DNA of 52,734 bases from a virus. Position numbers and translations under genes: made by a program. This document shows positions 13,378 to 52,734 of the stretch, piece by piece. The stretch lies in the UHGV virus genome UHGV-0124967; one strand, written 5' to 3'. Position 1 is the first letter of the stretch. Each line of letters starts with the position of its first letter. The notes beneath the pieces were generated by a model, which made no database searches, was not told where the DNA came from, and worked only from the letters and a program-made list of their open reading frames with translations.

Positions 13378-14037
13378 ATGAAACGGTTAGCAAAAGTGGC
13401 AATGATTGCGGCGGTATTGGGTCTGGTTGGTTGCAATGAGGATAATGAAAAAGCGCCTATAGTGACCACTCAAGAACAACAAGCATTAGCAGAGAAAAAT
13501 GCTAAATGGCTTGCAGAACAACAAGCAAAACAAGCCGCATATGAGGCACAGTTAGCAAAAGAAAAAGCTGGTAAACAGTGGCTTGTGGTCGAAAGAAAAG
13601 ATGATATGCAGGACACAAAAAACGTGTTCCTTTTCGTGAAAGCAGAACATTTCAGCGGAAGTCTTGATGCTTTCCCTACACTGAAAGCACGGGATGAAAA
13701 CAAACCTGTATTAACAATCGCTTGCCAGGGTAATAAAACAAAAATGTTCGTAGCATGGTCAAACCATGTAACTGACGCTGGGGACACTACTTATATTAAC
13801 TACCGGATCGGCGATCACAAAGCTGTAGCTACTGAATGGAGTCGGTCAACTAACTATAAAGCTCTTGGATTATGGAACGGCAAAAAAGCCATTCCAATGA
13901 TTAAAAAACTGGTTAACGAAAAACAATTTATCATTGAAGTAGTGCCGGAAGCTGGCGACATTGAGAAAGCAGTGTTTAACATTGATGGTCTTTATAACCA
14001 CATCGACAAAGTGAAAAACGCTTGCAACTGGAATTAA
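13378..14037 (+). CDS. lipoprotein, 219 aa (tail-region moron), function unknown
   Basis: ATG 13378 with GAGGTGG RBS; signal peptide with lipobox LVGC; coiled-coil-like segment; AT-rich compared with neighbours. Confidence 0.7.
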   Translation: MKRLAKVAMIAAVLGLVGCNEDNEKAPIVTTQEQQALAEKNAKWLAEQQAKQAAYEAQLAKEKAGKQWLVVERKDDMQDTKNVFLFVKAEHFSGSLDAFPTLKARDENKPVLTIACQGNKTKMFVAWSNHVTDAGDTTYINYRIGDHKAVATEWSRSTNYKALGLWNGKKAIPMIKKLVNEKQFIIEVVPEAGDIEKAVFNIDGLYNHIDKVKNACNWN

Positions 14038-14046
14038 GGGTGAAAC

Positions 14047-14367
14047 ATGAAACGCGATGAATGGATGAGAAAATGGGAACATAAACAAGTAGCATATAAT
14101 CGCAAGATGAACCGCGAATTTGACTTCGGTGTCGCAGAGCGTGATTGTGGGTATAAAGGAAATCTAAATGGTGCATATGTTCAACATGTTGGCGATAAAC
14201 AGTATTATTACATTGTCAACTTCAACCATGTATTGCACGCAGATCTGGTTGTTATTGATGGGAAAACAAAAATAGTAGCGAATAAACGCATTAATAAGAA
14301 CGCAGCAATCAATATATTAACAGTGATTCGCACCCAGATGAATGTGCTTTACGAAAAAATAGCATAA
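14047..14367 (+). CDS. hypothetical protein, 106 aa, co-transcribed with lipoprotein
   Basis: ATG 14047, 7 nt after lipoprotein stop, AAGGGTGA RBS. Confidence 0.55.
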   Translation: MKRDEWMRKWEHKQVAYNRKMNREFDFGVAERDCGYKGNLNGAYVQHVGDKQYYYIVNFNHVLHADLVVIDGKTKIVANKRINKNAAINILTVIRTQMNVLYEKIA

Positions 14368-20286: not shown

Positions 20287-21231
20287 TTACTCCCAATCTT
20301 CGCCATATTTAGCGTGCGCAACTTTATAGTTTTCTTGCGCCCGATCTAATATTCGTTCGTTTAATATGTTACCGTCTTCGTCAACTAATACGGTAATCGT
20401 GCTACATTTGCAGTTAATTGAATTAGGGGATCTACTCCACCATTCGCGCTGCTCATCTATGGTGTATGTTTTACCGTGCCGCTGCGCGTGCGATAGCCTG
20501 GTAGTCGGTGATAATGCCGAAATGTGCATTTGCATAGTGCGCAGATTAAATTCTTCTGTCGCCGCTTCTGCCTCATCCATACGCGCTGTGCGTAACGCTG
20601 TGCATATTTCAGTTCGGGCAATACGTTTGCACCTGTATAGCGGTAACCGCGTCTCCTGATTCAATGTGCGCGCTATTTCCAGTGGATTTAAACCGCGTGC
20701 CATACCTTCGGTTAATCTTCTTGCCATATCCTTTTTGATCTGTGCGGTCAGCCCGCGCATTTCCTCAAATACACGGGTACGTACCAGGGCAAGGCGGGTG
20801 CGGTAAGTTGTGCTTGATAACACGGCAGATACATCAGGGTAGGCGCTTGAGTACGTGACAGACTGGTTAGCGAGGTTGGCATATTCCTGTGCCGTGCCGC
20901 GCTGATAGGCCACCTTCACGTAATTCTGCCAGAACCAGAAGTTTTCCGGGTCTGTTAACTCGAATATCTCATCAATCATGTCGCTTGCGTCCTCCAGCAT
21001 GTCGTGAAATTCATCCATGTAAATCTGAAAGGTGTATTTCTTATTAACAGCCAGGCTATATTGGATTCTGTCCAATATGGCGATATATGGATCGGCTACT
21101 TTTTTCAGGCAGGATTTGAAACGCTTAATAGCACCAGACCTTAACTTCCCTGTCATGGTCGGGTCTTCGGTGTTAGATGGCATTATCGCGGCTGGAGGTA
21201 TTCGCCTGATTATCTTCTTCACTTTCATCAT
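20287..21231 (-). CDS. head morphogenesis protein (Mu F / SPP1 gp7-like)
   Basis: 314 aa downstream of portal; start ambiguous (21231, or 21183 which reduces overlap with portal). Confidence 0.7.
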   Translation of the reverse strand: MMKVKKIIRRIPPAAIMPSNTEDPTMTGKLRSGAIKRFKSCLKKVADPYIAILDRIQYSLAVNKKYTFQIYMDEFHDMLEDASDMIDEIFELTDPENFWFWQNYVKVAYQRGTAQEYANLANQSVTYSSAYPDVSAVLSSTTYRTRLALVRTRVFEEMRGLTAQIKKDMARRLTEGMARGLNPLEIARTLNQETRLPLYRCKRIARTEICTALRTARMDEAEAATEEFNLRTMQMHISALSPTTRLSHAQRHGKTYTIDEQREWWSRSPNSINCKCSTITVLVDEDGNILNERILDRAQENYKVAHAKYGEDWE

Positions 21232-22543
21232 CGTTTTCCTCTTCCAGTTCTACCTCACTAGCCGGGCCATTATATCCGGCAGCTTCGCGGATCTCGTCAC
21301 CGCTGAATATTTCCTCACCAGTAGCGAGACATGCCTGATTGATTTGTGCCATTTTGTATGCCGCGTCGAGTAGCTCTGCTTTTGTCATGGCGTTAAGGTC
21401 GTCCCACAGTACAGATACGTCTACTGGCATACTGATAAGGCGGAGATCTGCCATCTTGAGGAATAGCTCCTCAAGCTCGCCTCCTATTTCCTCACGGCGG
21501 GTCATGCAGCGGTTATTGAAGTAGCGGAGGTCTTCGGTTGATGCGCGTTCGCCCTGCTGATTCCCAACCAGGATACGCGTTGGAATATCGATACCAGCGG
21601 CTGCGGTTTGCAGGTTGACGTCATAGGTAGCGGAAGGATCTGCTACGGCAGTAACCAGCGGGCTAACGGTAGCTCCCTGTAATGCCATCATCACATCATT
21701 ACCTTTATTTATATCCTCTGCCGCTTCATTGAATTTTTCGCGTAGCTCTGTAACGTCGCAACCGTATGTTGCAGCCAGAGAACGGAAATCAATTTCTTTA
21801 TCGAACGAGATAGCCAGTTGACGTGCTGCGTTTTTCAGGAATGATTCACCGCTGCCGCCTTCCACTTTCTCCAGCGAAACGAATGCGTTATAGGACGGTT
21901 CAAGGAAGGCGATGGCATCATCAGAATAGTCGCCAAAGATAAATATGCGATCGGGATGTATCTTTCTTGCTATGGCCTTACTGTTAATGCGCTCCTTGTA
22001 TTCCCACCATGTCGGCAGGCCATAGTTTTCATTATCCGGGTTTTCTTCGAAGTCCTTCGGTGTAAGAGCACCAGCCCATACAGGGGTAAATTTGGCAATG
22101 CCTACACCTTTTGTTACTGGCTGATCCCACGGCTTGTTATCCCTGACGTGAATTAACAGTCCAGCATAACGACCGATGAGGCGGCGGCGATCGCATTCAG
22201 CTATGACGCGCCAGAAACGATTATCAAATTGTTTTTTGATTTCTCTTTCCCACGATGTTTCATTTTCCGCTTTCTCGTCTTCCGTACCTTCAATCAGCGT
22301 TGGCCTGGTGCGCCAGCACGTAGTAATGATCTTCTCAATAGCACCGTGAGCGATACCACCGCGACGATACAGTTTGTATAAATCGGCATAGGTGATTTCT
22401 TCTTTGAATCCGTATTCACTCCACGCAGCATCACGTTTTGCATCAATACCCATTGAGAATGGGTTAGCAGCTGCATAGCGGGCAAAGGCCGCCTGGCGTT
22501 GAGACAAGGCAGCATTAACCGCCAATTCTAAATTGGATGGCAT
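21173..22543 (-). CDS. portal protein
   Basis: ATG 22543 with AGGAG RBS (track ORF starts 22564); acidic C-terminus; between TerL and head morphogenesis gene. Confidence 0.7.
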   Translation of the reverse strand: MPSNLELAVNAALSQRQAAFARYAAANPFSMGIDAKRDAAWSEYGFKEEITYADLYKLYRRGGIAHGAIEKIITTCWRTRPTLIEGTEDEKAENETSWEREIKKQFDNRFWRVIAECDRRRLIGRYAGLLIHVRDNKPWDQPVTKGVGIAKFTPVWAGALTPKDFEENPDNENYGLPTWWEYKERINSKAIARKIHPDRIFIFGDYSDDAIAFLEPSYNAFVSLEKVEGGSGESFLKNAARQLAISFDKEIDFRSLAATYGCDVTELREKFNEAAEDINKGNDVMMALQGATVSPLVTAVADPSATYDVNLQTAAAGIDIPTRILVGNQQGERASTEDLRYFNNRCMTRREEIGGELEELFLKMADLRLISMPVDVSVLWDDLNAMTKAELLDAAYKMAQINQACLATGEEIFSGDEIREAAGYNGPASEVELEEENDDESEEDNQANTSSRDNAI

Positions 22544-22691
22544 AATGTTTACTCCTGAATACATGTTTACGCGTTGCTACGCGAAAAATAGAAAAACTTG
22601 TGGGGGATTGTGAGACAGATTTTATGTAGCCAATTGAGAATTATTCTTGTTCATCTTCGAAAATTTTTCGAAGTTGATAATAATCAATAAC

Positions 22692-31746: not shown

Positions 31747-32058
31747 TTAAAATCTGTATTGCCAGTAAATATCACACTTTATTGCGAATACCTTCACCGG
31801 ATCAGGGCCGAATAGTGGATGTTGAATCAACTTGATTTCGTACCCCATGTAAGGCAATACGATAATCCGGTCTTTCTCATCATCCGATGGATAACCCCAT
31901 TTAATGATTAATCTTGTGTACTCCCGCCCCTCCAGGCGTTTACGCCAGTATTCATTGTAAAGCCGGTATTCTTCCACCTTCTTTCCCGCCCGGATGGCGT
32001 GGAAGTATTCACCTTTTAAATTCAAATGTAAGTGTTTATTTGCCATCGCTATGATCAT
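31747..32058 (-). CDS. putative ASCH-domain protein (start 32058 or 32046)
   Basis: HAIRAGKKVEEYRL fits the ASCH GxKxxExR motif. Confidence 0.5.
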   Translation of the reverse strand: MIIAMANKHLHLNLKGEYFHAIRAGKKVEEYRLYNEYWRKRLEGREYTRLIIKWGYPSDDEKDRIIVLPYMGYEIKLIQHPLFGPDPVKVFAIKCDIYWQYRF

Positions 32059-32305
32059 GTAAACAGTCGTTATAGCCTTCGATGTATCCGGTTAATCCTG
32101 TGTTACTTACTGACCAATCAGCCGAACGGCGCTTGATGGCCTTGTCCATAGTCATCTCGTCACCTGGCCCGCCTGGCTCGATGTATTTTCTTAAATCCCT
32201 TACTATCCACGCCCTTAATTGTTGCGTATCACTGCACACACGCGCCGTTAATGTCAGATTATTAACCAGCTTTGCGAATAGATGTTCTTTTAATTTAGGC
32301 TTCAT
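32036..32305 (-). CDS. hypothetical protein, 89 aa
   Basis: GAGGTGA RBS. Confidence 0.5.
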   Translation of the reverse strand: MKPKLKEHLFAKLVNNLTLTARVCSDTQQLRAWIVRDLRKYIEPGGPGDEMTMDKAIKRRSADWSVSNTGLTGYIEGYNDCLHDHSDGK

Positions 32306-32501
32306 CCTTCACCTCGCGACGATAGATTTCTACTGGCTTAACCGGAATAGCGTTAAAATCACCTTCATCCAGTGCGGCAATAAACGTTAGCGCCAACCGT
32401 GCTTCAACACCGCTTAAATACTTGCACCATGCCTCACCGTTATAATCTTTAAAAAGAATAATCACTTTTTCATGTTTATCTCTTGTTGTTTCATTATTCA
32501 C
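32295..32501 (-). CDS. hypothetical protein, 68 aa, non-ATG (GTG) start
   Basis: No in-frame ATG; begins at GTG overlapping the Q stop. Confidence 0.4.
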   Translation of the reverse strand: MNNETTRDKHEKVIILFKDYNGEAWCKYLSGVEARLALTFIAALDEGDFNAIPVKPVEIYRREVKDEA

Positions 32502-33216
32502 CCCGTGTCACTCGTTTAATTTCGTTATCAGCCCGCGCCTCTTCTTTGAACAATTCAGTAATGGCGTCTTCATAGAAAGCACGGTATTTCTTCCACCACG
32601 TTGATCGGCTTACCGGAAATACAAGCTGATTAACCGCACGCCGGACAAGATCTACAGGGAAACGCGAGTACCCGCGCCCGCCGCAATGCTGGCACGTTTT
32701 GAACACTGGCATTTCCGCTGCTTCACTGGCTGCTTTATCCGGTATCTCGCCGCGCCCTTTGCATCGTTTACAATGATTGCGAACTTTTCCATGCCCCTTG
32801 CATTTTTTGCAAAGGTGTTTTTCTCCGTAGTCGTCAAACGTAAATTTATATCCGCCGCAATCCATACAAGTTTTTTCTGTCGCGGCACTCTGGCAGTAAT
32901 CCCGAAACGCGAAAACGGCAACAAGAATAATAAGATCATTGCGTTTGTCCTCGTCCAACTCCATGACGTATTCGTAATCTTTTGCCATAGCTCTTAAACG
33001 CTCTGTAAGCAAAACTACGGCCCTGTGTTTTTCGGCTTGCGATAATTCCATCTTCCCTAAAAAAGCGCTATAACCAAGCTCTACGCGCGATTGCGCCATA
33101 CCTGCTGCGGTTAGTGCATCAGTAGTATTAAGCGAGTCTGGGGACGTGCCCCGGCTTTCATCTGACAAACGCGGTGATTTTGGGAAGTGGAATTTAAGAA
33201 TAGATTCCAAATTCAT
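32494..33216 (-). CDS. Q: late-gene antitermination protein Q (zinc-finger type)
   Basis: 240 aa; four CxxCxGxG repeats; follows RusA and a small gene as in nin regions. Confidence 0.65.
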   Translation of the reverse strand: MNLESILKFHFPKSPRLSDESRGTSPDSLNTTDALTAAGMAQSRVELGYSAFLGKMELSQAEKHRAVVLLTERLRAMAKDYEYVMELDEDKRNDLIILVAVFAFRDYCQSAATEKTCMDCGGYKFTFDDYGEKHLCKKCKGHGKVRNHCKRCKGRGEIPDKAASEAAEMPVFKTCQHCGGRGYSRFPVDLVRRAVNQLVFPVSRSTWWKKYRAFYEDAITELFKEEARADNEIKRVTRGE

Positions 33217-33398
33217 TATTTACCCCCGTAACGTGCAACCAGTCTTTTGCGATCAGATATTGATTGCACTAGCTTTCTTTCAAACTCTTTCAGTGCAAGT
33301 AATTCTCGCATGTGAAAAGCCTGAATTTGTCGGACTGTGGCTAAATCACGCTCGTCGCGCTGAATATCTATTTGCAGATCTTTAATTTCGTTTTTCAT
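33216..33398 (-). CDS. small protein between rusA and Q, 60 aa from first ATG
   Basis: ATG 33398 directly after RusA stop; track ORF extends to GTG 33410. Confidence 0.45.
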   Translation of the reverse strand: MKNEIKDLQIDIQRDERDLATVRQIQAFHMRELLALKEFERKLVQSISDRKRLVARYGGK

Positions 33399-33400
33399 TG

Positions 33401-33802
33401 TTACCACCACATATTAGTCAAGTATTCGTTAATATCCGGTAACAGGTCGCCGCGTTCGCGTACCTTGATAAACAATCGCCCTCTTTTTACCTTCCGGCAG
33501 CGGACAAATTTCATTGCGTCAACCTGGCTATCATCAGCCCAAAAACCGGAATAAGTTATAGCGTCAAATAATGCCTTCCCTACATTGTCAATATCGCGGC
33601 GTCTGTTATCTGGCGGTGCAATATACACCGTTATTGATAGCCTACACTTAAGATTAATTTTCAGATTAAGCAGTTTTATAATGTCTTTTACCTGCTCCCT
33701 GTATTCCTTACCTTCCTTGCTTATATAGTGGAAACCGCGCGAATGCCGGTAATATTTATTGTTCGATGGCGGGTAAGGCAGGCTAAAAGTATATTCATTC
33801 AT
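33401..33802 (-). CDS. rusA: Holliday junction resolvase RusA
   Basis: 133 aa; LPYPPSNNKYYRH...RRRRDIDN...FWADDSQV close to RusA as recalled. Confidence 0.85.
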   Translation of the reverse strand: MNEYTFSLPYPPSNNKYYRHSRGFHYISKEGKEYREQVKDIIKLLNLKINLKCRLSITVYIAPPDNRRRDIDNVGKALFDAITYSGFWADDSQVDAMKFVRCRKVKRGRLFIKVRERGDLLPDINEYLTNMWW

Positions 33803-34404
33803 GCTGCCTTTCTCCTTAAGGCGTCCAATTTAGCCTGATAGACTTTTATGATCTCCTTGCATTCTTCGATCGCCCATTTATGAGTTTCGTTGTTGTTCTC
33901 CAGCGCTTCCACCCTGGCAAGGCCAATTTTCCTAATCAGCGCTGGGCGATATGCTTCTATGTTGCCATCTAATGTCTGGTTGCAGTGCCTGCATTGTTTG
34001 TGGCAATTATCCTCGTTAAAACGAAGGTGCCCGGCGGCGGCAACCGTTCTATAGTGTCCGGCATCTGCTCCGCATTGTTCGTAATAGTAAGTCCCGCATG
34101 ATATGCACGGCTGACCCGCGTCACGTTCGCGGATATAGGCATTAAATACCGCTTGTGCCTGCTTCAACCAATAACTACGCGGATTTAACTGCTTCCGCTT
34201 CCGGTTGCGTTCTTCCCGCTGGCTATCACGGCGTTTCTTCCGTTCCATAGCCTTCATAGCCTTCTCACGGTCGCGGCATAGCTGATCAAACTTCAGCTCT
34301 TCCAGACACTCATCACTGCACCACGTTTGATTGTGATATTTAGGCTCAAAAAAAACGCCGCAGCACTTGCAACGGCGTCTTATTGGTTTTTTAGGGTTCT
34401 GCAT
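33799..34404 (-). CDS. ninG: recombination protein NinG (Rap-like)
   Basis: First ATG 34404 gives MQNPKKPIRRRCKCCGVFFEP...; Cys-rich N-terminus and basic linker (track ORF extends to 34494). Confidence 0.7.
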   Translation of the reverse strand: MQNPKKPIRRRCKCCGVFFEPKYHNQTWCSDECLEELKFDQLCRDREKAMKAMERKKRRDSQREERNRKRKQLNPRSYWLKQAQAVFNAYIRERDAGQPCISCGTYYYEQCGADAGHYRTVAAAGHLRFNEDNCHKQCRHCNQTLDGNIEAYRPALIRKIGLARVEALENNNETHKWAIEECKEIIKVYQAKLDALRRKAA

Positions 34405-34418
34405 AAAAACCACCCCTA

Positions 34419-34595
34419 TTATTTTTGATTCTCTGTTTCGTTCAGCCTTTCGGTGTGTCCGGCCCTTAGCCAATGATCTAAGCATTCGTTGCACTCGTTA
34501 CAGCCTCCTTTCTTTGTGCTGCATACATTGCACATTGCACGCATGACGCTTTCTCGTTCATAGTCGTCATGCCATTGGTAATTATCAAAAGACAT
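34419..34595 (-). CDS. small Cys-rich protein, 58 aa (zinc-ribbon-like)
   Basis: ATG 34595 with AGGGAGGGA RBS; CNVCSTKKGGCNECNEC. Confidence 0.4.
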   Translation of the reverse strand: MSFDNYQWHDDYERESVMRAMCNVCSTKKGGCNECNECLDHWLRAGHTERLNETENQK

Positions 34596-34754
34596 AATGC
34601 TCCCTCCCTTTAAGGTGATTTCTACGCATTTCAGCGCTGCCGGATTTTTAAAGAGCATTTCGTTTGCTTGAAGTATACAAAATGGATACACGTAAACAAG
34701 ACGAAAAGCGCCATTATGTGACCTGTATCACACAATGACGCCATTTTGTAAACT

Positions 34755-35516
34755 TCAGTCCGGTAAAACGCGGTTGAGCGTAGTACGATTGATGGCCCGG
34801 TCGTTAGCCAGGAATACAGCACGGGCAAAGCCACGCGGCGTTAGTGAGCGGATCATCTTAGTGCGTTTCGACTTTCCTCCTAACTTAGCGTGCTGCTTAC
34901 TGTCTTCCCATTCATCAGGCATTGGCACAGGCAGGAATAGCGGCTGATTAAATCCATTCCCGCACCAGATACAAGTTTTCTTCGTGTATGCGTCGCGGTC
35001 GGCGATGTATTCCGGGAAGGCAGGATGTTTGTCATCTTCAGGCAGGTAGCCACCGTAAGCGCACGGGTTGAAGATAAAATCCGGCTTACGCCATAACGTT
35101 GACAGCGCACCTACCGGATTTTCCACCATCCACGGGACGTGGTACATATCAGCAAGCGTTTCTACCAGTTTTGCGTTGTATGCCGCCTTCTGCTGGAAGT
35201 AAGGTTCTTTTTTCCGCTTATCAGCAAACCAGCGAGCGCCGGACACCGCAAGATCGTCGCACGGAGGAAAGCCCAGGATAATGTCAGGATCTGGATAAAC
35301 AGACAATTCAGGGGAGAACATTACCAGGAAATGGCTGTCAATCCATACGTTGATATACTCAATGTTCGGATGAATGATTTTTGACGCCTTCATAATCGCC
35401 GTGATTAGCGCCATCATAGTTGAAGCAATAGCATTTATAACCAGCGTCGGCCCAATCTTTAACGGCGTATCCGCTGCCGTCGTACAGCGACCACACCACC
35501 CAATTTCTAAGTCCAC
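34755..35516 (-). CDS. DNA cytosine-5 methyltransferase-like protein (short, atypical N-terminus)
   Basis: PDPDIILGFPPCDDLAVSG resembles motif IV and WMVENPVG motif VI; no clean motif I, so may be truncated or frameshifted. Confidence 0.5.
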   Translation of the reverse strand: MDLEIGWCGRCTTAADTPLKIGPTLVINAIASTMMALITAIMKASKIIHPNIEYINVWIDSHFLVMFSPELSVYPDPDIILGFPPCDDLAVSGARWFADKRKKEPYFQQKAAYNAKLVETLADMYHVPWMVENPVGALSTLWRKPDFIFNPCAYGGYLPEDDKHPAFPEYIADRDAYTKKTCIWCGNGFNQPLFLPVPMPDEWEDSKQHAKLGGKSKRTKMIRSLTPRGFARAVFLANDRAINRTTLNRVLPD

Positions 35517-36019
35517 TCTTTCCTACCCTCGAACGTAAAGTAGCGGCGCATGATGATAGTGATCACCGTTACCGCCGCCATTTTTGAGATGAATTGCATA
35601 GCTGATATTTCCGGCATGAATGCCATAAACGATAGCGTTGGGAAAATTAACGCATCGCCAATGGCGGACGCTATATTTGCAGGCCAGCGTTTAGAATCGA
35701 AATCACCAGGTAAAACCCGGTAAACGCCGCCAGAAATAAGCGCACCGGAAACAACCGCGACGAATGACGCGATCGCCACCATTCCGGCGTCGTAATTTAT
35801 CAGCACCGTGATTGCGCCAGCGGCGGCGCATGTTGTAGCCGACCATTTAAGGCCGCCGTCATATAACAGAAAATCACGAATCATCATATTGACACACACT
35901 GCGGCTACCGTGGTGATCGGAATTACCCACGGGCCACAGTGGTTAACAATAAGATTGATGATCACGAAAACGGCGACATAAACGCAGGCTAATAACCTGT
36001 CAATTGTCACCCTTTTCAT
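35507..36019 (-). CDS. multi-pass inner membrane protein, 170 aa
   Basis: ATG 36019 with AAGAGGT RBS (track ORF starts at TTG 36061); several hydrophobic helices. Confidence 0.5.
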   Translation of the reverse strand: MKRVTIDRLLACVYVAVFVIINLIVNHCGPWVIPITTVAAVCVNMMIRDFLLYDGGLKWSATTCAAAGAITVLINYDAGMVAIASFVAVVSGALISGGVYRVLPGDFDSKRWPANIASAIGDALIFPTLSFMAFMPEISAMQFISKMAAVTVITIIMRRYFTFEGRKEWT

Positions 36020-36500
36020 TTGGATCGTACCTCTTATCACGAATAGCTTCAGCTCTATCAAACTTCAAATCAAGTCGAGTTGAAATGCAACCACATTGAG
36101 GGTTAAGCATAGAAGGCGGCAATCCCTTACAACTGGTTATAGCTTCATCTTTTATTAATCCACCATTCAGCGGCATATCAAAAACAGCCTGTTTCTTTCT
36201 TTGTTCTTCCTCACGTTCCGTTAATATTTGCTCAGCTTTTAGCGCGTTATAGCTAATTAAATCAATTAGTGTGTCTGTCGGATCGCTGTTATTGCTCAAA
36301 ATAGCCTCTAAACGCGCCTCCTTGAGACAAATTAGCAGATCCCATACATCAAGCGTGGTTAAATCTGCCCCCTTCTTAGCGTTGTAAATAGTGGCTATTT
36401 TTGGCGCTGATTTTTCCTCTTTTTTGTCGTAGCCGTTTTGCTTACCTCTTTGCTCTATGGTTTCTGATGCAAGTCTTAATAAATCTGCTGCCTTAGTCAT
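36000..36500 (-). CDS. hypothetical protein, 166 aa
   Basis: Track ORF; overlaps Dam end by 8 nt. Confidence 0.5.
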   Translation of the reverse strand: MTKAADLLRLASETIEQRGKQNGYDKKEEKSAPKIATIYNAKKGADLTTLDVWDLLICLKEARLEAILSNNSDPTDTLIDLISYNALKAEQILTEREEEQRKKQAVFDMPLNGGLIKDEAITSCKGLPPSMLNPQCGCISTRLDLKFDRAEAIRDKRYDPNEKGDN

Positions 36501-37032
36501 TATTTGCGCCTCTCGCGTATAGCTCTTTACGTGTTATCTGCGTGAAAATACATTCATGTCTGCACCGTGGATGCCAGATCAAGAACAAGCTCCCTTTATT
36601 GTTTCCGCTTGCTGGTTTCCCTGTCGCGGCATTTATAAAAGCCAGCCGCCCGCGCGTAATTAATCGGCATTCGTTTGCCGTCTCCACGCCGTTCATAAAC
36701 CAGTTAACAGAAATGTCAGCGGGCAATAACATTACACAGCCAATGTGATTTCGTTGATGTTCAAGCGCCGCCTTATCAACGAATGGCCCCGGATTAGAAT
36801 ATGGCGGATTCATCCAGACATACTCACCAGGCATCGCCACCGCTCCCCACGGATAATGGAGCGTGTCCATTTCTTCGGTTATATATCGCGGTATTAATGC
36901 GTTTGCCTTGTTTGCCGCCACATCCGCGACGAATTCGAATTCCAGATCCATTCCTCTAAAAACAGGTTTCGGCGTCTGCCATAGGTCTTTTATTTCTTTC
37001 GGCGTGTTGCTGCCGCCGTAATCATTTTTCAT
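36493..37032 (-). CDS. DNA N6-adenine methyltransferase (phage Dam-like)
   Basis: 179 aa; catalytic motif WMNPPYS. Confidence 0.85.
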   Translation of the reverse strand: MKNDYGGSNTPKEIKDLWQTPKPVFRGMDLEFEFVADVAANKANALIPRYITEEMDTLHYPWGAVAMPGEYVWMNPPYSNPGPFVDKAALEHQRNHIGCVMLLPADISVNWFMNGVETANECRLITRGRLAFINAATGKPASGNNKGSLFLIWHPRCRHECIFTQITRKELYARGANND

Positions 37033-37041
37033 TACGCCCCC

Positions 37042-37293
37042 TTAGAAATAATCCTGATCAGTTCCCCATCGGTTGTTTAAATACCCCACCAGCCAGACAA
37101 AACGCTCGATACTGATTAGCGGGGCGACCTTGCGATAATGCTTGTCTAATATCAGCCGCGTGGCTTTATCGCTGTAGCCGTTCTTTTCCACCTCCGCTTT
37201 GCAGGCCGAAAGCGCCGCGCGGGCGGCAGTTTTTACGGCGTTAAATTGCGGCTCTGACATATTGAATAAAGCCATAGGATCACCATGTATCAT
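37042..37293 (-). CDS. hypothetical protein, 83 aa
   Basis: Track ORF with ATG. Confidence 0.5.
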   Translation of the reverse strand: MIHGDPMALFNMSEPQFNAVKTAARAALSACKAEVEKNGYSDKATRLILDKHYRKVAPLISIERFVWLVGYLNNRWGTDQDYF

Positions 37294-37477
37294 CCCAATC
37301 CGGCGCGGCAGTCAAGCAAAAACCAATGAATGCGCTCACAGCCAATAAAGCGCGGGCTGCAAAAAGAATATTCCCAATGTCGTTAAATTCAGGCAGCGAC
37401 CACGTAATAAACATACCCCCCAGCATAATAACACCGATAACAGTCAGGGCCGCCAGGAAAACAAAAAGCGTAGCCAA
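37280..37477 (-). CDS. putative membrane protein; start uncertain (TTG 37477 or ATG 37426)
   Basis: Hydrophobic throughout. Confidence 0.35.
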   Translation of the reverse strand: MATLFVFLAALTVIGVIMLGGMFITWSLPEFNDIGNILFAARALLAVSAFIGFCLTAAPDWDDTW

Positions 37478-37518
37478 AAGCCACGCCCCCCAACCAGTTA
37501 AAAAAGCTCTTAAGCATT

Positions 37519-37722
37519 TTAAACGTCCTCAATTACCCCGCCTTTCACGCGCTCTTTAATATCCCATACGTGAGGCTTGCACATTTCTTGATAGTAGTGA
37601 TCCGGCCTGCTGCCGAAATACCATTTGCCATCCATATAAAAATAAACGCCAGAAAAATTTCCTGGTGCTGCCTTTGTCGCTGCTTCTGGAATTTTCCATT
37701 CTTTATAGTGTTTAAACTTCAT
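37519..37722 (-). CDS. hypothetical protein, 67 aa
   Basis: Track ORF with ATG. Confidence 0.45.
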   Translation of the reverse strand: MKFKHYKEWKIPEAATKAAPGNFSGVYFYMDGKWYFGSRPDHYYQEMCKPHVWDIKERVKGGVIEDV

Positions 37723-37906
37723 GAGCTTTTAAATAACCTCTTCTGAATGCTTTGATGTAAAGTCCTAGCCTTCTTATATGCTGAACGCCATCAATGAGGC
37801 GCACTAAATAAATCGCCCCGTTTGCGTCAGATACAAAACTACAACCAAAACCAATGCCTACTAACTTCAGGTTTTCAGGTATTCTATAATCAGTTTCCTG
37901 TTCCAT
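37712..37906 (-). CDS. hypothetical protein, 64 aa
   Basis: GAGGTGAGG RBS. Confidence 0.45.
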   Translation of the reverse strand: MEQETDYRIPENLKLVGIGFGCSFVSDANGAIYLVRLIDGVQHIRRLGLYIKAFRRGYLKAHEV

Positions 37907-38322
37907 GCCTCACCTCATATGGTATTCAATAAACCACCTAATAAACAGGCATAAGGCAATAAAACACCAGCAACAGCACATATAAAACAATGTGTCGTCC
38001 ATAATTAAGCCTCAATAACACCATAATCAAACGTGCCTAAATACTGTTCGATACTTACAACCTCAATACCATCAATGCACCGTTTCTACACAGACACCCT
38101 GCTTTCATTTTCCCGGAAGTGCATATTAGAAAGCACTTCATCGGCTGGATAGCCTTTCCCAGCGACGTAGGCATCGAGACCTACTCCACCCTCAACACAA
38201 TAAAGCATTAATTCGCTGGCCATCTTGTTTTCCTCCGCGCCGTAAACCTTTTGATTTCAGTTCACAAAACGGATTCGCGATCACAACACAAAATGTATTT
38301 TTATGTGATCGCCATCACTATG

Positions 38323-38943
38323 TTAATGAAGTACGCGTTTTTCATGTTCTGGCATTGGCTGTGCGTCTTTCCGCGCGTCATTAAGCACGGCTACAGCCGC
38401 CTGCACACCGAAATCATTTGCACGCATATCATTGCCAACCATTTCGCCGTAAAATAATGGCATAAGATGTTTAACATCTTCTTCTTCGTAGCCATCATCA
38501 ATGAATTTCTGTAATAAATTAACCTCAAATAGTTTTTTCATAATGCCGCGCATAGAATACAGCGCAACGCTACCCATATGATTTTCATCTAACGGGAAAA
38601 TAACAGCACTTCCGAACGCCAGTGGGTCAACTTCTTCCGGCACTGGTACGCGACCATATTCTTCTTCCATTCGTTTTACGAAAGTAAGGCAGAAGACATA
38701 ACGAGCTACAGCCGTTTTTTCTTCAGCACTTAAAGACACATAATCGCGGATCAACGCATCCATCATAATATCAACAATCTGTAATGCCAGATTCAAATCA
38801 GCGTCATACTTGCCAGCTTCCATATCTTTCAATACTTCGTGATAATCTTTAATTTCCACTTTATGAAAACTTGCGTCTTCAGTGTAGCGAGTGATTAACA
38901 TGCCTTCGCTGTCGAGTGAATAAGCTGTTTTGATGTCGTTCAT
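38323..38943 (-). CDS. hypothetical protein, 206 aa
   Basis: Track ORF; acidic; followed by 416-bp gap. Confidence 0.55.
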   Translation of the reverse strand: MNDIKTAYSLDSEGMLITRYTEDASFHKVEIKDYHEVLKDMEAGKYDADLNLALQIVDIMMDALIRDYVSLSAEEKTAVARYVFCLTFVKRMEEEYGRVPVPEEVDPLAFGSAVIFPLDENHMGSVALYSMRGIMKKLFEVNLLQKFIDDGYEEEDVKHLMPLFYGEMVGNDMRANDFGVQAAVAVLNDARKDAQPMPEHEKRVLH

Positions 38944-41712: not shown

Positions 41713-42003
41713 TTAATGGTAGCGGACTTTATCCAGGGGTTTTTCCCCTAAATGGCGTGGTTGCGTTGCGTGGTAGTAGCTGCCGCTTTCATTTTCCGTA
41801 TACCATTTTACTGATCCTTTGCGACGTTCTTTAATGCTATTTGGTTTGCATCTTTCCTCGTTTGCAAATCGAATAGCTTTATCCACATTGTCTGTTTTAT
41901 TGATTGCAGGTGATGATTTTCTTTCGTTTTCTCTTTTTATCCTTCTGCGTTCCCTGGCATTCATTTTGCTATCACATTTGCCATATATAATTGTAACGCT
42001 CAT
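41713..42003 (-). CDS. basic protein with arginine-rich motif; possible N-like antiterminator
   Basis: 96 aa; GGAG RBS; NARERRRIKRENERK near N-terminus; first gene of the leftward operon after CI. Confidence 0.5.
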   Translation of the reverse strand: MSVTIIYGKCDSKMNARERRRIKRENERKSSPAINKTDNVDKAIRFANEERCKPNSIKERRKGSVKWYTENESGSYYHATQPRHLGEKPLDKVRYH

Positions 42004-42502: not shown

Positions 42503-43150
42503 TTATGGCAGGTTTACGATCTTCGCATCAACCACCACGCCTATAATTTTTGATTCTGGATTCATAGGGATTGGCGGATACAGCGGATTGAGCGAACGTA
42601 AAAGCCTTTGACCTCCATCAATAATCAACTGTTTAAACGTCGGTATCTGCCATTCCTCAAGCTGGGCTATAACCAGTTTGCCGTCAATAGCTGGCGCGTG
42701 CGGGTCAACAAGTATCATCGTCCCCGCCGGGATGCTCAACCCCTGCGGCGCGTTCATTGATTCACCTTTGGCAACCAGCCAGTAACTGTCATCTGAACAA
42801 ATAACGCTAGTCGTAACGTGTCGTAATGCTGAACGCCTTGCGTCATCCATATTGTTTACTGTGTCCTTCCAGTCAATAACCGGGTAACTACCTAAATCAC
42901 GCGGCGGCACAGCCTGAAGTGTATTAGAAACAGAATCATCAATGACCATACCATCATGTGTAACAGTGAACTGCCGACGACCAAGCTCTCGCATAATCCG
43001 CGCAATATCTTCAAGATTTGGCTCGCGGCGACCGTTCAGCCAGTGTGACAGGTCGCCTTTAGTTATCCCCATGCGATCCGCTAGTGAATCCTGGCTCATG
43101 CCCTGCGCCCGCATGAGCTGCTTTGCTAAGTCATACCATTTTGTTTTCAT
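42503..43150 (-). CDS. CI-like repressor (HTH plus S24 LexA-like self-cleaving domain)
   Basis: 215 aa; N-terminal HTH (QDSLADRMGITKGDLSHWLNGRR), C-terminal GESM...K pattern. Confidence 0.85.
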   Translation of the reverse strand: MKTKWYDLAKQLMRAQGMSQDSLADRMGITKGDLSHWLNGRREPNLEDIARIMRELGRRQFTVTHDGMVIDDSVSNTLQAVPPRDLGSYPVIDWKDTVNNMDDARRSALRHVTTSVICSDDSYWLVAKGESMNAPQGLSIPAGTMILVDPHAPAIDGKLVIAQLEEWQIPTFKQLIIDGGQRLLRSLNPLYPPIPMNPESKIIGVVVDAKIVNLP

Positions 43151-45145: not shown

Positions 45146-45646
45146 ATGCGCAAGTTAACACACGAAGAACACATCACAGATATAGCCAAAGTTAACACTT
45201 ATGTTGAAGTATTGGGAAAAATTAAGAACCATAGAGATAAAGTCCCGTGCCGCTGCAAGATCTGTAGTCATGAGTGGTCTGCCAGGCCTTGCAACCTTAA
45301 AAGCGGGTACGGCTGTCCAAAATGCGCGAAATACGGTTTCCTTCGTCATGAGTATGGCAAACTTTACATCATGGTTGATGATCTGGAAGTGCCTACACAA
45401 ATGAAAATTGGGGTAAGTGTTCAGGAAAATAAACGAAGAAACGAGATATTAAAAAGCGCACATAAAGCAGGCGTTAGAATTCCTAATTTGCATATCGTGA
45501 AAACGTTAGAAGGGCCAACCGAAAATATACATGAACTAGAAAACACGATGCATAAGGCTTTTAGCAATTATAAAATTAACTTTCCTGTAAAATTTGATGG
45601 TAGCAATGAGTTTTTTATTACAGGCCGGAAGTATTCGACATGGTAG
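45146..45646 (+). CDS. zinc-ribbon plus T5orf172-like (GIY-YIG-like) domain protein
   Basis: 166 aa; AAGGAG RBS; CRCKICSHEW...CPKCAKYG, then KLYIMVDD...MKIGVSVQENKRRNEIL...NEFF. Confidence 0.55.
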   Translation: MRKLTHEEHITDIAKVNTYVEVLGKIKNHRDKVPCRCKICSHEWSARPCNLKSGYGCPKCAKYGFLRHEYGKLYIMVDDLEVPTQMKIGVSVQENKRRNEILKSAHKAGVRIPNLHIVKTLEGPTENIHELENTMHKAFSNYKINFPVKFDGSNEFFITGRKYSTW

Positions 45647-50573: not shown

Positions 50574-50803
50574 TGGATAAAACCGGGACAATCCTTCTTA
50601 GTCGCCCTGCCATCTGCCGGATGCTTGGGGGAATTAGCAGGGGAACGTTTTACTTATGGCGTAAAAAATGGGAACGGAACGGAACTCCGTTCCCCGACCC
50701 GGTTGACGTACTTGGGACCGGGCGTGGCGTTATGTACCGCTATCAGGACGTAATGCAGTTCTTTGATCGGATTGGTTTAACGTCAGCCAAAGATAACACA
50801 TAA
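50573..50803 (+). CDS. AlpA-family HTH regulator / putative excisionase
   Basis: 76 aa; LGGISRGTFYLWRKKWERNGTPFPDPVDVLGTGRGVMYRYQDVMQFF pattern; convergent with integrase 3' end. Confidence 0.65.
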   Translation: MDKTGTILLSRPAICRMLGGISRGTFYLWRKKWERNGTPFPDPVDVLGTGRGVMYRYQDVMQFFDRIGLTSAKDNT

Positions 50804-51958
50804 TCAGCAAACTTATTTAGTGCCTCCTTTTGTTCATCAAGATAATCATATTTGTCGTACACCGCCAGTATTCCCCTTAATGAATGGCCTAAGATCTTTT
50901 CTGCAATATGTACCGGAACACCTATAGCTGAAAGGTGTGTCCGGCACGTCCTGCGGAGGTCGTGACAGGACCATGATTTACCGCCCATCCTTTTACGCAC
51001 GAATATTGCAGCTACTTTTATCACTGATACGTTTACTGGCCTGTTGCCGCCGTTAATCACTGGCGGGAATACATAATCATACTCATGGGAGGTTAAAACC
51101 TCCCTGAGCATTTTTATCGACAAGTCAGATAATCCCCGCCTGATTTCACTTCTTGTCTTCGCCACCGCCGCCGGAACGGTCCATACACCGTTGTCCAGAT
51201 CTAGGTGTTCCCTTCTCATTTTCTGCAATTCACCAACCCTGCACCCGGTTAGCAATAATAGCTTTAAGGCTATTTTGTTCTGCGGATAGATCTGCGAACT
51301 GTCTACCGTGCGCCAGAAGTGGCCTATCTCCTCACATGAAAGGTAACGCTCCCCCCACCGCATAATGCTCGCCAACGTCAGCTACACGGATATTGTTTAT
51401 CGCCGTGTTAGTCATTAGCCCACGCCTGATTGCGCTGTTAACGATGATTTTCATTCGCTTCAATATCAAACCAGCCGTAACCGCGTGACCCGCCGCAGTG
51501 ATCTCGCCAAATATATCCATCCACTGTTTTGTCGTTACGTCGTCAGCTATGTAGTCGCCGTACTTGTTGACTACGTGGCGCATCAATGCGCTTTTGACTT
51601 CTTTATATGCCACCAGCTTAATGACGTTCGGCAGGGATAGATAGTCTTCCACTACGTCGGATATAGATCGCTTGCCCTGCTCAAAGGCTATGGCCTGCTT
51701 TACGCACAGTGCCGGATTCTTCCCTTTCGTAAGCAACTCCCTGTATTCAGACACCGCATAGCGGGCGTCTTTCAGACTCATTTTCCCGTATTCACCGATC
51801 TTCATTCGCACTGGCTTACCGTTGAATCTGTAACGGTACTGGAAAGTAATTTTCCCTTTTGGGTTTATCCTGGCTGACAGGCCATCACGATCAGCTATCT
51901 CGCTTGGACCGTCGTATGGCTTGTTGGCGATGGCCCTTAACCTGGTATCCGTAAGCAT
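50743..51958 (-). pseudogene. tyrosine integrase disrupted by a frameshift
   Basis: Two overlapping frames (51332..51958 N-terminal, 50743..51375 C-terminal with HDLRR, LGHS, AVYDKYDY motifs). They meet at a C6 run (51351-51356); deleting one base would give continuous ...GEHYAVGERYLSCEEIGHFW.... Could be a real pseudogene or a sequencing error. Confidence 0.7.
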
Positions 51959-51972
51959 GTTGCCCCCCCATT

Positions 51973-52235
51973 TTTGGTCACGTTTTGGTACACAGTTTTT
52001 GTTGTACGGATATTAACAGTATTGTACGGAATTAGAAACGTGATGCCGGGTTTTGGTTACAACTTTATGATTTTTAAGTGATTTTATTGACGTGATTGAA
52101 CGGAGTTAAACGCCTTTAAACATAGTGCGCTGGTCCTGTCTGGAATGATTAGTGTAACGAATAATCATTTATAAAACATAATGTTATGTTGTTTTTGATT
52201 TTAGTTTTTGATATTTGGTCACTATTTGGTACACA
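51973..52235. repeat. two copies of a ~22-bp direct repeat flanking an AT-rich region; candidate integrase arm sites / att region
   Basis: TTTGGTCACGTTTTGGTACACA (51975-51996) and TTTGGTCACTATTTGGTACACA (52214-52235); each is itself a tandem of TTTGGT(C/A)AC. Confidence 0.35.
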
Positions 52236-52263
52236 AAAAGAAACGAGGCGTTAGCCTCGTTTC
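52235..52263 (-). terminator. rho-independent terminator for minus-strand gene 52307..52591
   Basis: GAAACGAGGC-GTTA-GCCTCGTTTC followed on minus strand by T5. Confidence 0.5.
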
Positions 52264-52306
52264 TCGGCGATGCTTTCAACATCACCATGCTATCACTGCC
52301 GCATCA

Positions 52307-52591
52307 TTAAGCCCATGCGCGGACGCCTGGATCTGGAACGATGAAAGGCTCAAGCTGAGAAATATCAACATCGTCACCAGTTATACGCACGTTGACGTAA
52401 TAACCTTTTTTTCCAATAAGTACAGGTGTCTCGCTTTCTGGATCGTCGAATACAAGGACAAAACCGATATCATCAATAAACACGGTTGACCAATTGGCAT
52501 CCAGCCAGCCGCTATTAATCACAATGTCGTTGTATTGCTGTTTGTCAGTAAATTGCAAGCTAACGTCTTTCATGTTAACCACCTTAAACAA
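52307..52591 (-). CDS. hypothetical protein, 94 aa (outside or at edge of prophage)
   Basis: Track ORF with AAGGTGG RBS; followed by terminator. Confidence 0.45.
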   Translation of the reverse strand: MFKVVNMKDVSLQFTDKQQYNDIVINSGWLDANWSTVFIDDIGFVLVFDDPESETPVLIGKKGYYVNVRITGDDVDISQLEPFIVPDPGVRAWA

Positions 52592-52593
52592 TT

Positions 52594-52734
52594 TCGCTTA
52601 ATTGCGCATCAGTTAATGCCTTATGCCATACTCGAAAATTTCTAACATGACCAAATAAATGACGTTGTCCTGTCGTTGTCTGACCACCGATACGAATAGT
52701 TGCGGAGCTTTGAATATAAGTCCAGGTTGTTTTT
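52594..52734 (-). CDS. C-terminal fragment of a protein with a LamG/jelly-roll-like terminus; gene starts beyond window end
   Basis: Open minus frame from window end to TAA at 52594; ends ...GQRHLFGHVRNFRVWHKALTDAQLSEIV. Confidence 0.4.

Follow-up and report, generated by a model that had tools for sequence, protein, structure and literature searches.

A putative lineage-specific block of accessory genes with an intact Dam gene, an apparent C5-methyltransferase-like pseudogene and a candidate VUT-type transporter gene in an mEp021-group coliphage

The 52,734-nucleotide (nt) viral genome UHGV-0124967 (hereafter the window, meaning the whole stretch of DNA that was analysed) carries, at positions 34755 to 37032, a Dam-like N6-adenine methyltransferase gene and a short C5-cytosine-methyltransferase-like gene, which bracket the genes of a membrane protein and a 166-amino-acid (aa) protein. 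This arrangement raises the question of whether the four genes form one DNA-modification system or are separate accessories, and whether both methyltransferases could act in this phage. The four open reading frames (ORFs) were found where the initial annotation had placed them, all on the minus strand and overlapping end to end. We consider it likely that these are accessory genes with translational overlaps that form a block specific to their lineage, in the early operon of a temperate mEp021-group phage, in which Dam is intact, the C5-like gene is a pseudogene and the membrane protein is a VUT-type transporter. The features on which this reading depends are the following (positions are those of the window).

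36493 to 37032, minus strand: phage Dam-family N6-adenine DNA methyltransferase gene, 179 aa, intact (PF05869, TIGR01712, phrog_111, NPPY motif).
36000 to 36500, minus strand: gene of a DUF6378-domain protein, 166 aa (PF19905 at 30.3 bits versus a gathering threshold of 27.1; phrog_9871/474).
35507 to 36019, minus strand: gene of a putative divergent, short VUT/YhhQ-type membrane transporter, 170 aa (phrog_4899, E 1.2e-46; transitive PF02592 homology).
34755 to 35516, minus strand: C5-cytosine-methyltransferase-like main ORF, 253 aa, GTG start (phrog_757, E 2.9e-71, residues 47-246).
35359 to 35499, minus strand: detached 5' fragment of the C5-like gene, 46 aa, in another frame, with motif I (VWSLYDGSGY) and a CFN..HG.Y block, ending at a premature TGA.
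35378 to 35382, minus strand: frameshift site, an A5 run (GTCAAAAATC) with one extra A; intact homologues read GTN AAA/AAG ATC.
35518 to 35519, minus strand: lost T of the ancestral ATG; relatives have ...GGAAATGAG..., in which ATGA overlaps the upstream stop, and the window has GGAAAGAG.

The C5-like gene had been suspected of being decaying or frameshifted at its 5' end, and examination of 34755..35516 showed that this was an understatement. Alignment with four intact homologues (mEp021, MagusPhagus, PAR, and M15), together with a blastn comparison with the related locus L005, defined two lesions, an extra A at 35378-35382 and a missing T at 35518/19, so that the gene has both a frameshift and a lost start codon. 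The main ORF follows the ancestral frame from approximately codon 47 onward only (35377 downward) and carries GFPPC, ENPV, WRKP, and RSLTPRGFA; of the two motifs named in the initial annotation, GFPPC was found as described (ILGFPPCDD), and the reported ENV is actually ENPV (MVENPVG). The absence of a clean motif I was likewise true of the main ORF, VWSLYDGSGY being located out of frame in the fragment 35359-35499, which ends at the premature TGA because of the frameshift. A local hidden Markov model (HMM) built from 24 family members matched both the main ORF (1e-99) and the 5' fragment (6e-22), well outside what chance would give, and the region was 94-98% identical to the L005 product when read in two frames. 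Repair in silico, with the extra A taken out and the T restored, gave a 254-aa protein that was 96% identical to the nearest cluster. Motif I and the catalytic core stand in one polypeptide in the intact relatives and do not in the window. Among the loci of the relatives, 23 of 25 had an intact C5-like gene, and an mEp021-like prophage (L112, IMGVR_UViG_2609459822_000013) carried an independent 1-nt deletion at approximately 5345-5363 of its locus, which left ORFs of 118 and 130 aa. Because the ATG is lost and the frameshift parts motif I from the catalytic core, we proposed that the C5-like gene here is a recent pseudogene, approximately 96% identical to intact copies, from which no normal enzyme would be made, and that only Dam could act.

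The Dam assignment, originally made from WMNPPYS, was confirmed by the methyltransferase profiles. The protein matched PF05869 over its full length at 174.5 bits (cut-off 28.1; E 1.9e-51) and TIGR01712, also full-length, at 140 bits (cut-off 97.05), both above the curated cut-offs, and the catalytic (D/N)PP(Y/F) motif is present in the translation (...YVWMNPPYSN...). Within this family the window protein is typical, and nothing notable sets it apart; the identical protein was recorded on 94 contigs, E. coli isolates included, and a search of the PDB with it gave no meaningful match. GATC was over-represented in the window genome, with 247 sites versus 173 +/- 13 in dinucleotide-preserving shuffles, and the genome does not avoid host Dam and Dcm sites. 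CCWGG was also over-represented (120 versus 59 +/- 8 in shuffles of the same kind).

The C5-like gene belongs to a compact, phage-wide family of 2,381 clusters with proteins of approximately 227-262 aa, found in lambdoid-like phages and in large (approximately 150-kb) phages such as Salmonella phage SSE121 and Escherichia phage A7_1. Twelve of 24 diverse members reached PF00145 (best 1.3e-6), and GSG, PPC, ENPV, WR, and RSLT.RG were invariant in all 24; the motif IV Pro-Cys and the motif VI Glu-Asn are present, with P93, P94, C95, E141, N142, P143, and V144 invariant. A confident AlphaFold2 model for the family had a predicted local distance difference test (pLDDT) score of 85, and its top Foldseek matches were DNMT3A/B at approximately E 1e-6. 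Motifs I-IV aligned weakly with DNMT3B, M.HaeIII, and M.HhaI, through sub-threshold, N-terminal matches in a PDB profile search and through hhalign against M.HhaI; the M.HhaI query sequence aligned with 10mh_A from end to end (752 bits). A search with the C-terminal fragment of the family gave nothing useful. On the basis of the PF00145 matches, the weak motif I-IV alignment, the invariant motifs, and the structural matches to DNMT3A/B, we assign the compact family to the C5-cytosine methyltransferase fold, as a DNMT3-like group, and predict that it is catalytic. Beyond the core, only WRKP and the C-terminal RSLTPRGFA helix are conserved in the family, and the sequence alignments to M.HhaI and the PDB are weak. 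Compared with PF00145 enzymes (M.HhaI and the DNMT3A/3B catalytic domains), the family members are only approximately 230-260 aa long, with PC(T/D) in place of PCQ and ENPV in place of ENV, and the proteins of the window's own lineage score below the PF00145 threshold. In addition, the place of the variable target-recognition domain of the other enzymes, between core and C-terminal helix, is taken in the compact family by a short segment of approximately 70 residues that is highly conserved across the family, which suggests either a shared specificity or very little specificity.

For the membrane protein, a family could be proposed that goes beyond the initial description as a multi-pass membrane protein. 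The most likely start is the ATG at 36019 (170 aa) rather than the TTG at 36061, and the 1-nt deletion at 35518/19 lengthens the protein at its end by three codons (EWT); the mEp021 homologue is annotated with six transmembrane (TM) segments. A Pfam search with the window protein gave no direct match to PF02592, and its close homologues matched Vut_1 over the whole profile below the cut-off (E 0.15-0.29, 12-13 bits; threshold 27.2). A word-indexed search returned close relatives and one 35%-identical cluster only, and an exhaustive profile search returned 286 relatives. Vut_1 (PF02592) was matched by 37 of 40 sampled relatives (best 2.5e-15), one of which was fused to a QueF domain, and one viral relative gave a weak match to TIGR00697 (E 8e-4). 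The matches of these intermediates, together with the weak full-length match of the close homologues, therefore argue for a short, divergent transporter of the YhhQ/VUT type. YhhQ itself transports preQ0, and phages are known to carry copies of it in 7-deazaguanine clusters (PMC6884629, PMC7544227).

Genes of this kind that cluster with phrog_4899 were common in viral contigs, with more than 500 tblastn-confirmed stretches. We addressed their context in 80 IMG/VR loci encoding relatives that cluster with a member of phrog_4899, the window protein's own PHROG. A 243-aa DpdA-type transglycosylase of phrog_887 (E 1.4e-69) was encoded in 76 of the 80 loci, in 60 of them immediately upstream of the VUT-like gene. 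In the window, an HMM built from the 76 viral DpdA-type proteins, which represent a single DpdA subfamily, gave no match at E <= 10; phrog_887 was not found among the ten unknown window genes scanned with PHROGs; and the annotation of the relatives by the Prokaryotic Genome Annotation Pipeline (PGAP) listed no tRNA-guanine transglycosylase (TGT), Que, or preQ0-synthesis genes. Since no DpdA match was obtained in the window and none is listed for its relatives, the transporter appears to be conserved here without its usual DpdA-type partner, although more distant DpdA types might be present; this context is the least expected feature of the region. The cluster of phage CAjan (folE-queD-queE-queC-yhhQ-dpdA; PMC7544227, PMC6884629) shares the VUT superfamily PF02592 with the window by transitive homology. 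The window transporter is approximately 165-170 aa long, versus 221 positions in the NCBIfam model of the enterobacterial transporter, and, unlike those in CAjan-type clusters, it adjoins the DUF6378 gene and the C5-like gene, with no DpdA-type gene detected. Viral VUT-like genes almost always followed the approximately 243-aa DpdA-type gene, which itself has no Pfam or NCBIfam match, and a phosphoadenosine phosphosulfate (PAPS)-reductase-like gene recurred in 11 of the 80 loci. On a phage contig of approximately 95 kb (L007, 6001-7198), a VUT-like gene with 35% identity is flanked by a DNA ligase gene and the gene of a 234-aa MazG/PRA-PH-like pyrophosphohydrolase, and no DpdA-type gene was evident in the Pfam listing of that 12.5-kb locus.

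The remaining member of the block, the DUF6378 gene, shares 8 nt with the end of the Dam gene. The N-terminal approximately 105 aa of its product are helical and conserved, and the C-terminal approximately 60 aa vary in length among relatives, with many indels at 36043-36203 in the comparison with L005. Its AlphaFold2 model had a pLDDT of 59, with four helices in residues 4-106; this low-confidence model gave no significant Foldseek match, and sequence and profile searches of the PDB found nothing. A MazG-like identity found no support and was dropped; hhalign against the MazG-like neighbour of a distant VUT gene aligned 12 columns only.

By DNA identity and by synteny with genomes of the group, the window belongs to the mEp021-group (mEpimmI) coliphages. 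The block region was 85-93% identical at the DNA level to mEp021, mEp010/013/044/515/554, MagusPhagus, and approximately 35 E. coli prophages, with the gene order kept. A 25-kb stretch reached up to 94.6% identity with a prophage of E. coli CB7286, and a 52,811-bp MEGAHIT contig in ENA from the human-gut run SRR341586 matched window positions 31755-38516 (approximately 6.8 kb) at 100%. The last 585 bases of the window (52150-52734) matched the opposite end of the same prophages, in a head-spike-fibre gene that lies approximately 53 kb from the integrase in the E. coli genomes; therefore, the window crosses the attP junction, and the sequence represents the excised or circular form of the phage, despite its broken integrase. 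In mEp021 (MH706966), gp30-gp33 show the same order of ipe, Dam, a hypothetical protein (DUF6378), the 6-TM membrane protein, and a putative cytosine methyltransferase, followed as in the window by a terminator, NinF, NinG, RusA, and Q, at 85-87% DNA identity. Unlike mEp021, the window has a C5-like gene that is frameshifted and without its ATG, and a membrane protein gene that is three codons longer. The mEp021 record and the available part of the accompanying paper (PMC11893012) give the membrane protein no family assignment. The kinds of genes in the block are already known, in a described phage group, and the region is mostly ordinary.

The block is followed on its 3' side by a NinF-like gene (real start 34595), NinG, RusA, and the Q antiterminator, and is preceded on its 5' side by small genes, ssb, erf, an arginine-rich N-like gene (41713-42003), and a LexA-family repressor gene (42503-43150), all on the same strand, with the replication genes on the opposite strand. 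Therefore, gene content places the block in an early, N-type-antiterminated operon, between the recombination genes and ninG-rusA-Q. The operon runs on past ninG, rusA, and Q into the late genes; its start resembles the lambda left operon, and its end resembles the lambda nin/Q region. A reading of the block as not early-left was rejected, because the N-like gene and the repressor gene were found on its strand. The early-left label of the initial annotation holds in that the operon is early, N-like-led, and lambda-left-like at its start; "left" itself depends on convention, and in the published mEp021 map the nut sites that flank the block are named nutR1 and nutR2 (PMC11893012). Three further features border the block.

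37042 to 37293, minus strand: small gene at the mEp021 ipe/gp29 position, directly 5' of Dam (phrog_303, E 3.8e-25; synteny with mEp021_29).
34707 to 34742, minus strand: terminator-like hairpin (16 pairs, T-rich tail) that immediately follows the C5-like stop codon, conserved in relatives and at the position of mEp021 TERM_4.
34623 to 34657, minus strand: boxA-like (TGCTCTTTAAAAA) and boxB-like (GCAGCGCTGAAATGCGTA) elements in a non-coding stretch that is near-invariant in four phages.

The boxA resemblance was judged against the lambda consensus. The boxA- and boxB-like elements stand at the position corresponding to nutR2 of mEp021, which the mEp021 paper puts downstream of the cytosine methyltransferase gene (PMC11893012).

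To return to whether the four genes serve one pathway, we counted neighbours within 5 kb of the C5-like gene in 80 IMG/VR loci, comprising 25 mEp021-like loci and 55 others. A VUT-like gene was present in all 25 mEp021-like loci and in none of the 55 others (0/55); for Dam the counts were 25/25 and 7/55, for DUF6378 23/25 and 6/55, and for a DpdA-type gene 0/25 and 0/55. Conversely, just 2 of the 80 viral VUT loci contained a C5-like gene. The four genes do not travel together outside the lineage; therefore, we read the block as probably a lineage-specific string of accessory genes and not a conserved module or pathway. A general pairing of the VUT-like gene with a C5-like or MazG-like gene was rejected by the neighbourhood counts.

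Several points weigh against reading the C5-like gene as a genuinely broken member of a DNA C5-methyltransferase family. Pfam searches with the window C5-like ORFs and with three intact close homologues gave no match, even at E <= 10, and NCBIfam searches with the window ORF and two intact close homologues gave none either. By sequence, neither a clear QxRxR motif VIII nor a separate motif X could be assigned, and the alignments cover motifs I-IV only. A literature search found no experimental report of DNA methylation by any family member, and we know of none that has been demonstrated to methylate DNA. As for the lesions, the five contigs that bear them may all come from one sample or read set and so may not confirm one another independently; exact-pattern scans of IMG/VR and of JGI metagenome contigs for the lesion allele found none; and several other indels in the window are homopolymer-length changes, which are also typical of sequencing errors. 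If both C5-like indels were assembly or sequencing artefacts, the real gene would be intact and both methyltransferases would be active. The run-length differences from relatives at 35378-82 (A4 to A5), 37490 (G5 to G6), 51356 (C6 to C7), 51970 (C9 to C7), and other sites are what such errors would leave, and the integrase, its homopolymer indel aside, matches an intact one at 99.7% identity. However, we regard artefacts as an unlikely explanation. The matching metagenome contig was produced by MEGAHIT (k127), a short-read assembler, and in deep short-read assemblies runs of 5-7 nt rarely show consensus indels. The frameshifted 253-aa product and the EWT-extended neighbour were each recorded on five assembled contigs, from sources that include Logan, ENA, and JGI/IMG; the ATG lesion does not alter the length of a homopolymer; and two lesions fall inside one 760-nt gene, with none in essential genes. 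The frame-breaking indels relative to close relatives were all in dispensable genes (the C5-like gene, twice; the gp28-like gene, 37490; the zinc-ribbon gene, 45616; and the integrase gene, 51356), and the structural, lysis, and replication ORFs were all intact. By a rough estimate, which takes approximately 57% of the genome to be essential for lytic growth, errors that fell at random would produce this dispensable-only pattern approximately 1-2% of the time. That the broken gene nonetheless yields an active enzyme, by +1 slippage on AAA-AAT or as a two-piece enzyme, is hardly credible. A +1 slip of tRNA-Lys in the A5 run would restore the ancestral ...GVKIIHP... and hence the wild-type protein. 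The gene also has an in-frame GTG at 35499 as well as internal ATGs, and a 220-aa product was called by JGI. However, the ATG is gone and with it the coupling to the upstream stop, the slippage site has no stimulatory element (a stop or a rare codon, for example), A5 is short for ribosomal slippage, and the relatives encode the protein in a single frame.

A single DNA-modification pathway, in which the VUT-like transporter would import a precursor for Dam, the DUF6378 protein, and the C5-like enzyme to install in DNA, is in our view very improbable. The end-to-end overlap of the four genes and their co-occurrence in the mEp021-like loci would fit such a pathway, as would the tight linkage of VUT-like genes elsewhere to a DNA-modifying enzyme, the DpdA-type protein. 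Yet outside the lineage the C5-like family has no VUT-like neighbour and rarely has Dam or DUF6378 nearby, a C5-like gene is correspondingly rare in VUT loci, and no DpdA was detected in the window; moreover, the C5-like gene has been lost in the window phage and in L112 while its neighbours are intact. The chemistry of the compact family is a separate matter: it might install another C5 adduct, for example, carboxymethyl from host carboxy-S-adenosylmethionine (Cx-SAM) like CmoX, or act on RNA like DNMT2. For the CmoX-like case, the C-terminal motif has an invariant Arg, which the alignments, covering motifs I-IV, did not place at the cofactor-selecting position, Asn304 of M.HhaI. DNMT3 enzymes have GRS at the same motif, yet they use S-adenosylmethionine (AdoMet). 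The best structural matches of the C5-like model are ordinary DNA 5-methylcytosine (5mC) enzymes, and the annotations of the phage relatives list neither cmoA nor a ligase gene, which makes an alternative chemistry improbable. CmoX-type enzymes are defined by an Arg where M.HhaI has Asn304 and by a cmoA gene close to their own (PMC12783734). CmoX itself, the DNA cytosine C5-carboxymethyltransferase of Synechococcus phage S-B43 (PDB 8yf3; PMC12783734), has 372 aa in the PDB entry, and its gene adjoins cmoA and a ligase gene, neither of which is annotated in the mEp021-group relatives. We likewise see only a small chance that the compact family (phrog_757, more than 2,300 clusters) adds a non-methyl C5 group and might also join the DpdA-less transporter and DUF6378 in an undescribed modification or salvage route.

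Taking the block as a string of separate accessories, we proposed how its products might act. On early transcription, Dam would place N6-methyl groups on adenines of the replicating phage DNA and also of the host DNA. In the intact relatives, the C5-like enzyme would flip out its target cytosine, the Cys of the PPC motif would attack C6, the Glu of ENPV would protonate N3, and a methyl group would be transferred from AdoMet; both enzymes would then mark replicating phage DNA, plausibly shielding it against restriction. In the window phage, with the C5-like gene broken, at most Dam would act. The transporter could carry a 7-deazaguanine precursor, as VUT/YhhQ-type transporters do in characterised cases. 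We infer enzymatic activity, target sequences, and restriction protection, the activity and the protection by analogy with established family chemistry; an anti-restriction role would be a reasonable inference for the intact relatives.

These results bear on annotation as well as on experiment. The name "DNA cytosine methyltransferase" is given to a large family of very small DNMT3-like enzymes, found across phages, with no Pfam support and no activity reports found, and the window copy, as an apparent pseudogene, does not belong in a count of functional anti-restriction genes. The "hypothetical membrane protein" of the mEpimmI phages could be annotated as a probable YhhQ/VUT-type transporter. 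Within the region, it is the transporter without DpdA and the compact C5 family that merit experiment; intact relatives could reveal the target sequence of a minimal C5 enzyme and the use of a precursor transporter in a phage without a base-inserting enzyme.

Other differences from relatives were observed elsewhere in the window. The tyrosine integrase gene (50743-51958, minus strand) is split into an ORF at 51332-51958 with the Arm-binding and central domains and an ORF at 50743-51375 with the catalytic domain; the cause is an extra base in a C-run at approximately 51356 (C7 versus C6), judged against the 99.7%-identical intact integrase of E. coli LP-26-E1-261. A second run-length difference lies just upstream of the integrase gene at approximately 51970 (C7 versus C9). 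The homologue of a 78-aa small membrane protein at the mEp021 gp28 position (37280-37532, minus strand) has an extra G at approximately 37490 (G6 versus G5), resulting in ORFs of 47 and 65 aa. A zinc-ribbon/HNH-like gene (45146-45646, plus strand) encodes 166 aa versus 303 aa in the E. coli CB7286 relative, with repeat-region differences, and a 1-nt deletion near its 3' end (approximately 45616) changes the last approximately 22 codons. For the gene at 21173-22564 (minus strand; 13174-14544 in the relative L005), the RefSeq annotation of the relative, where the gene encodes 456 aa, gives the name "anti-CBASS protein Acb1 family protein"; it sits between the large terminase and minor head protein genes, which is the expected portal position, and the name may be an annotation transfer error. 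Two plus-strand genes (13378-14367) are inserted among the minus-strand tail genes and are likely morons; the first is annotated in a relative as a homologue of "type VI secretion system-associated protein TagO", with a ParE-like toxin gene nearby in that relative.

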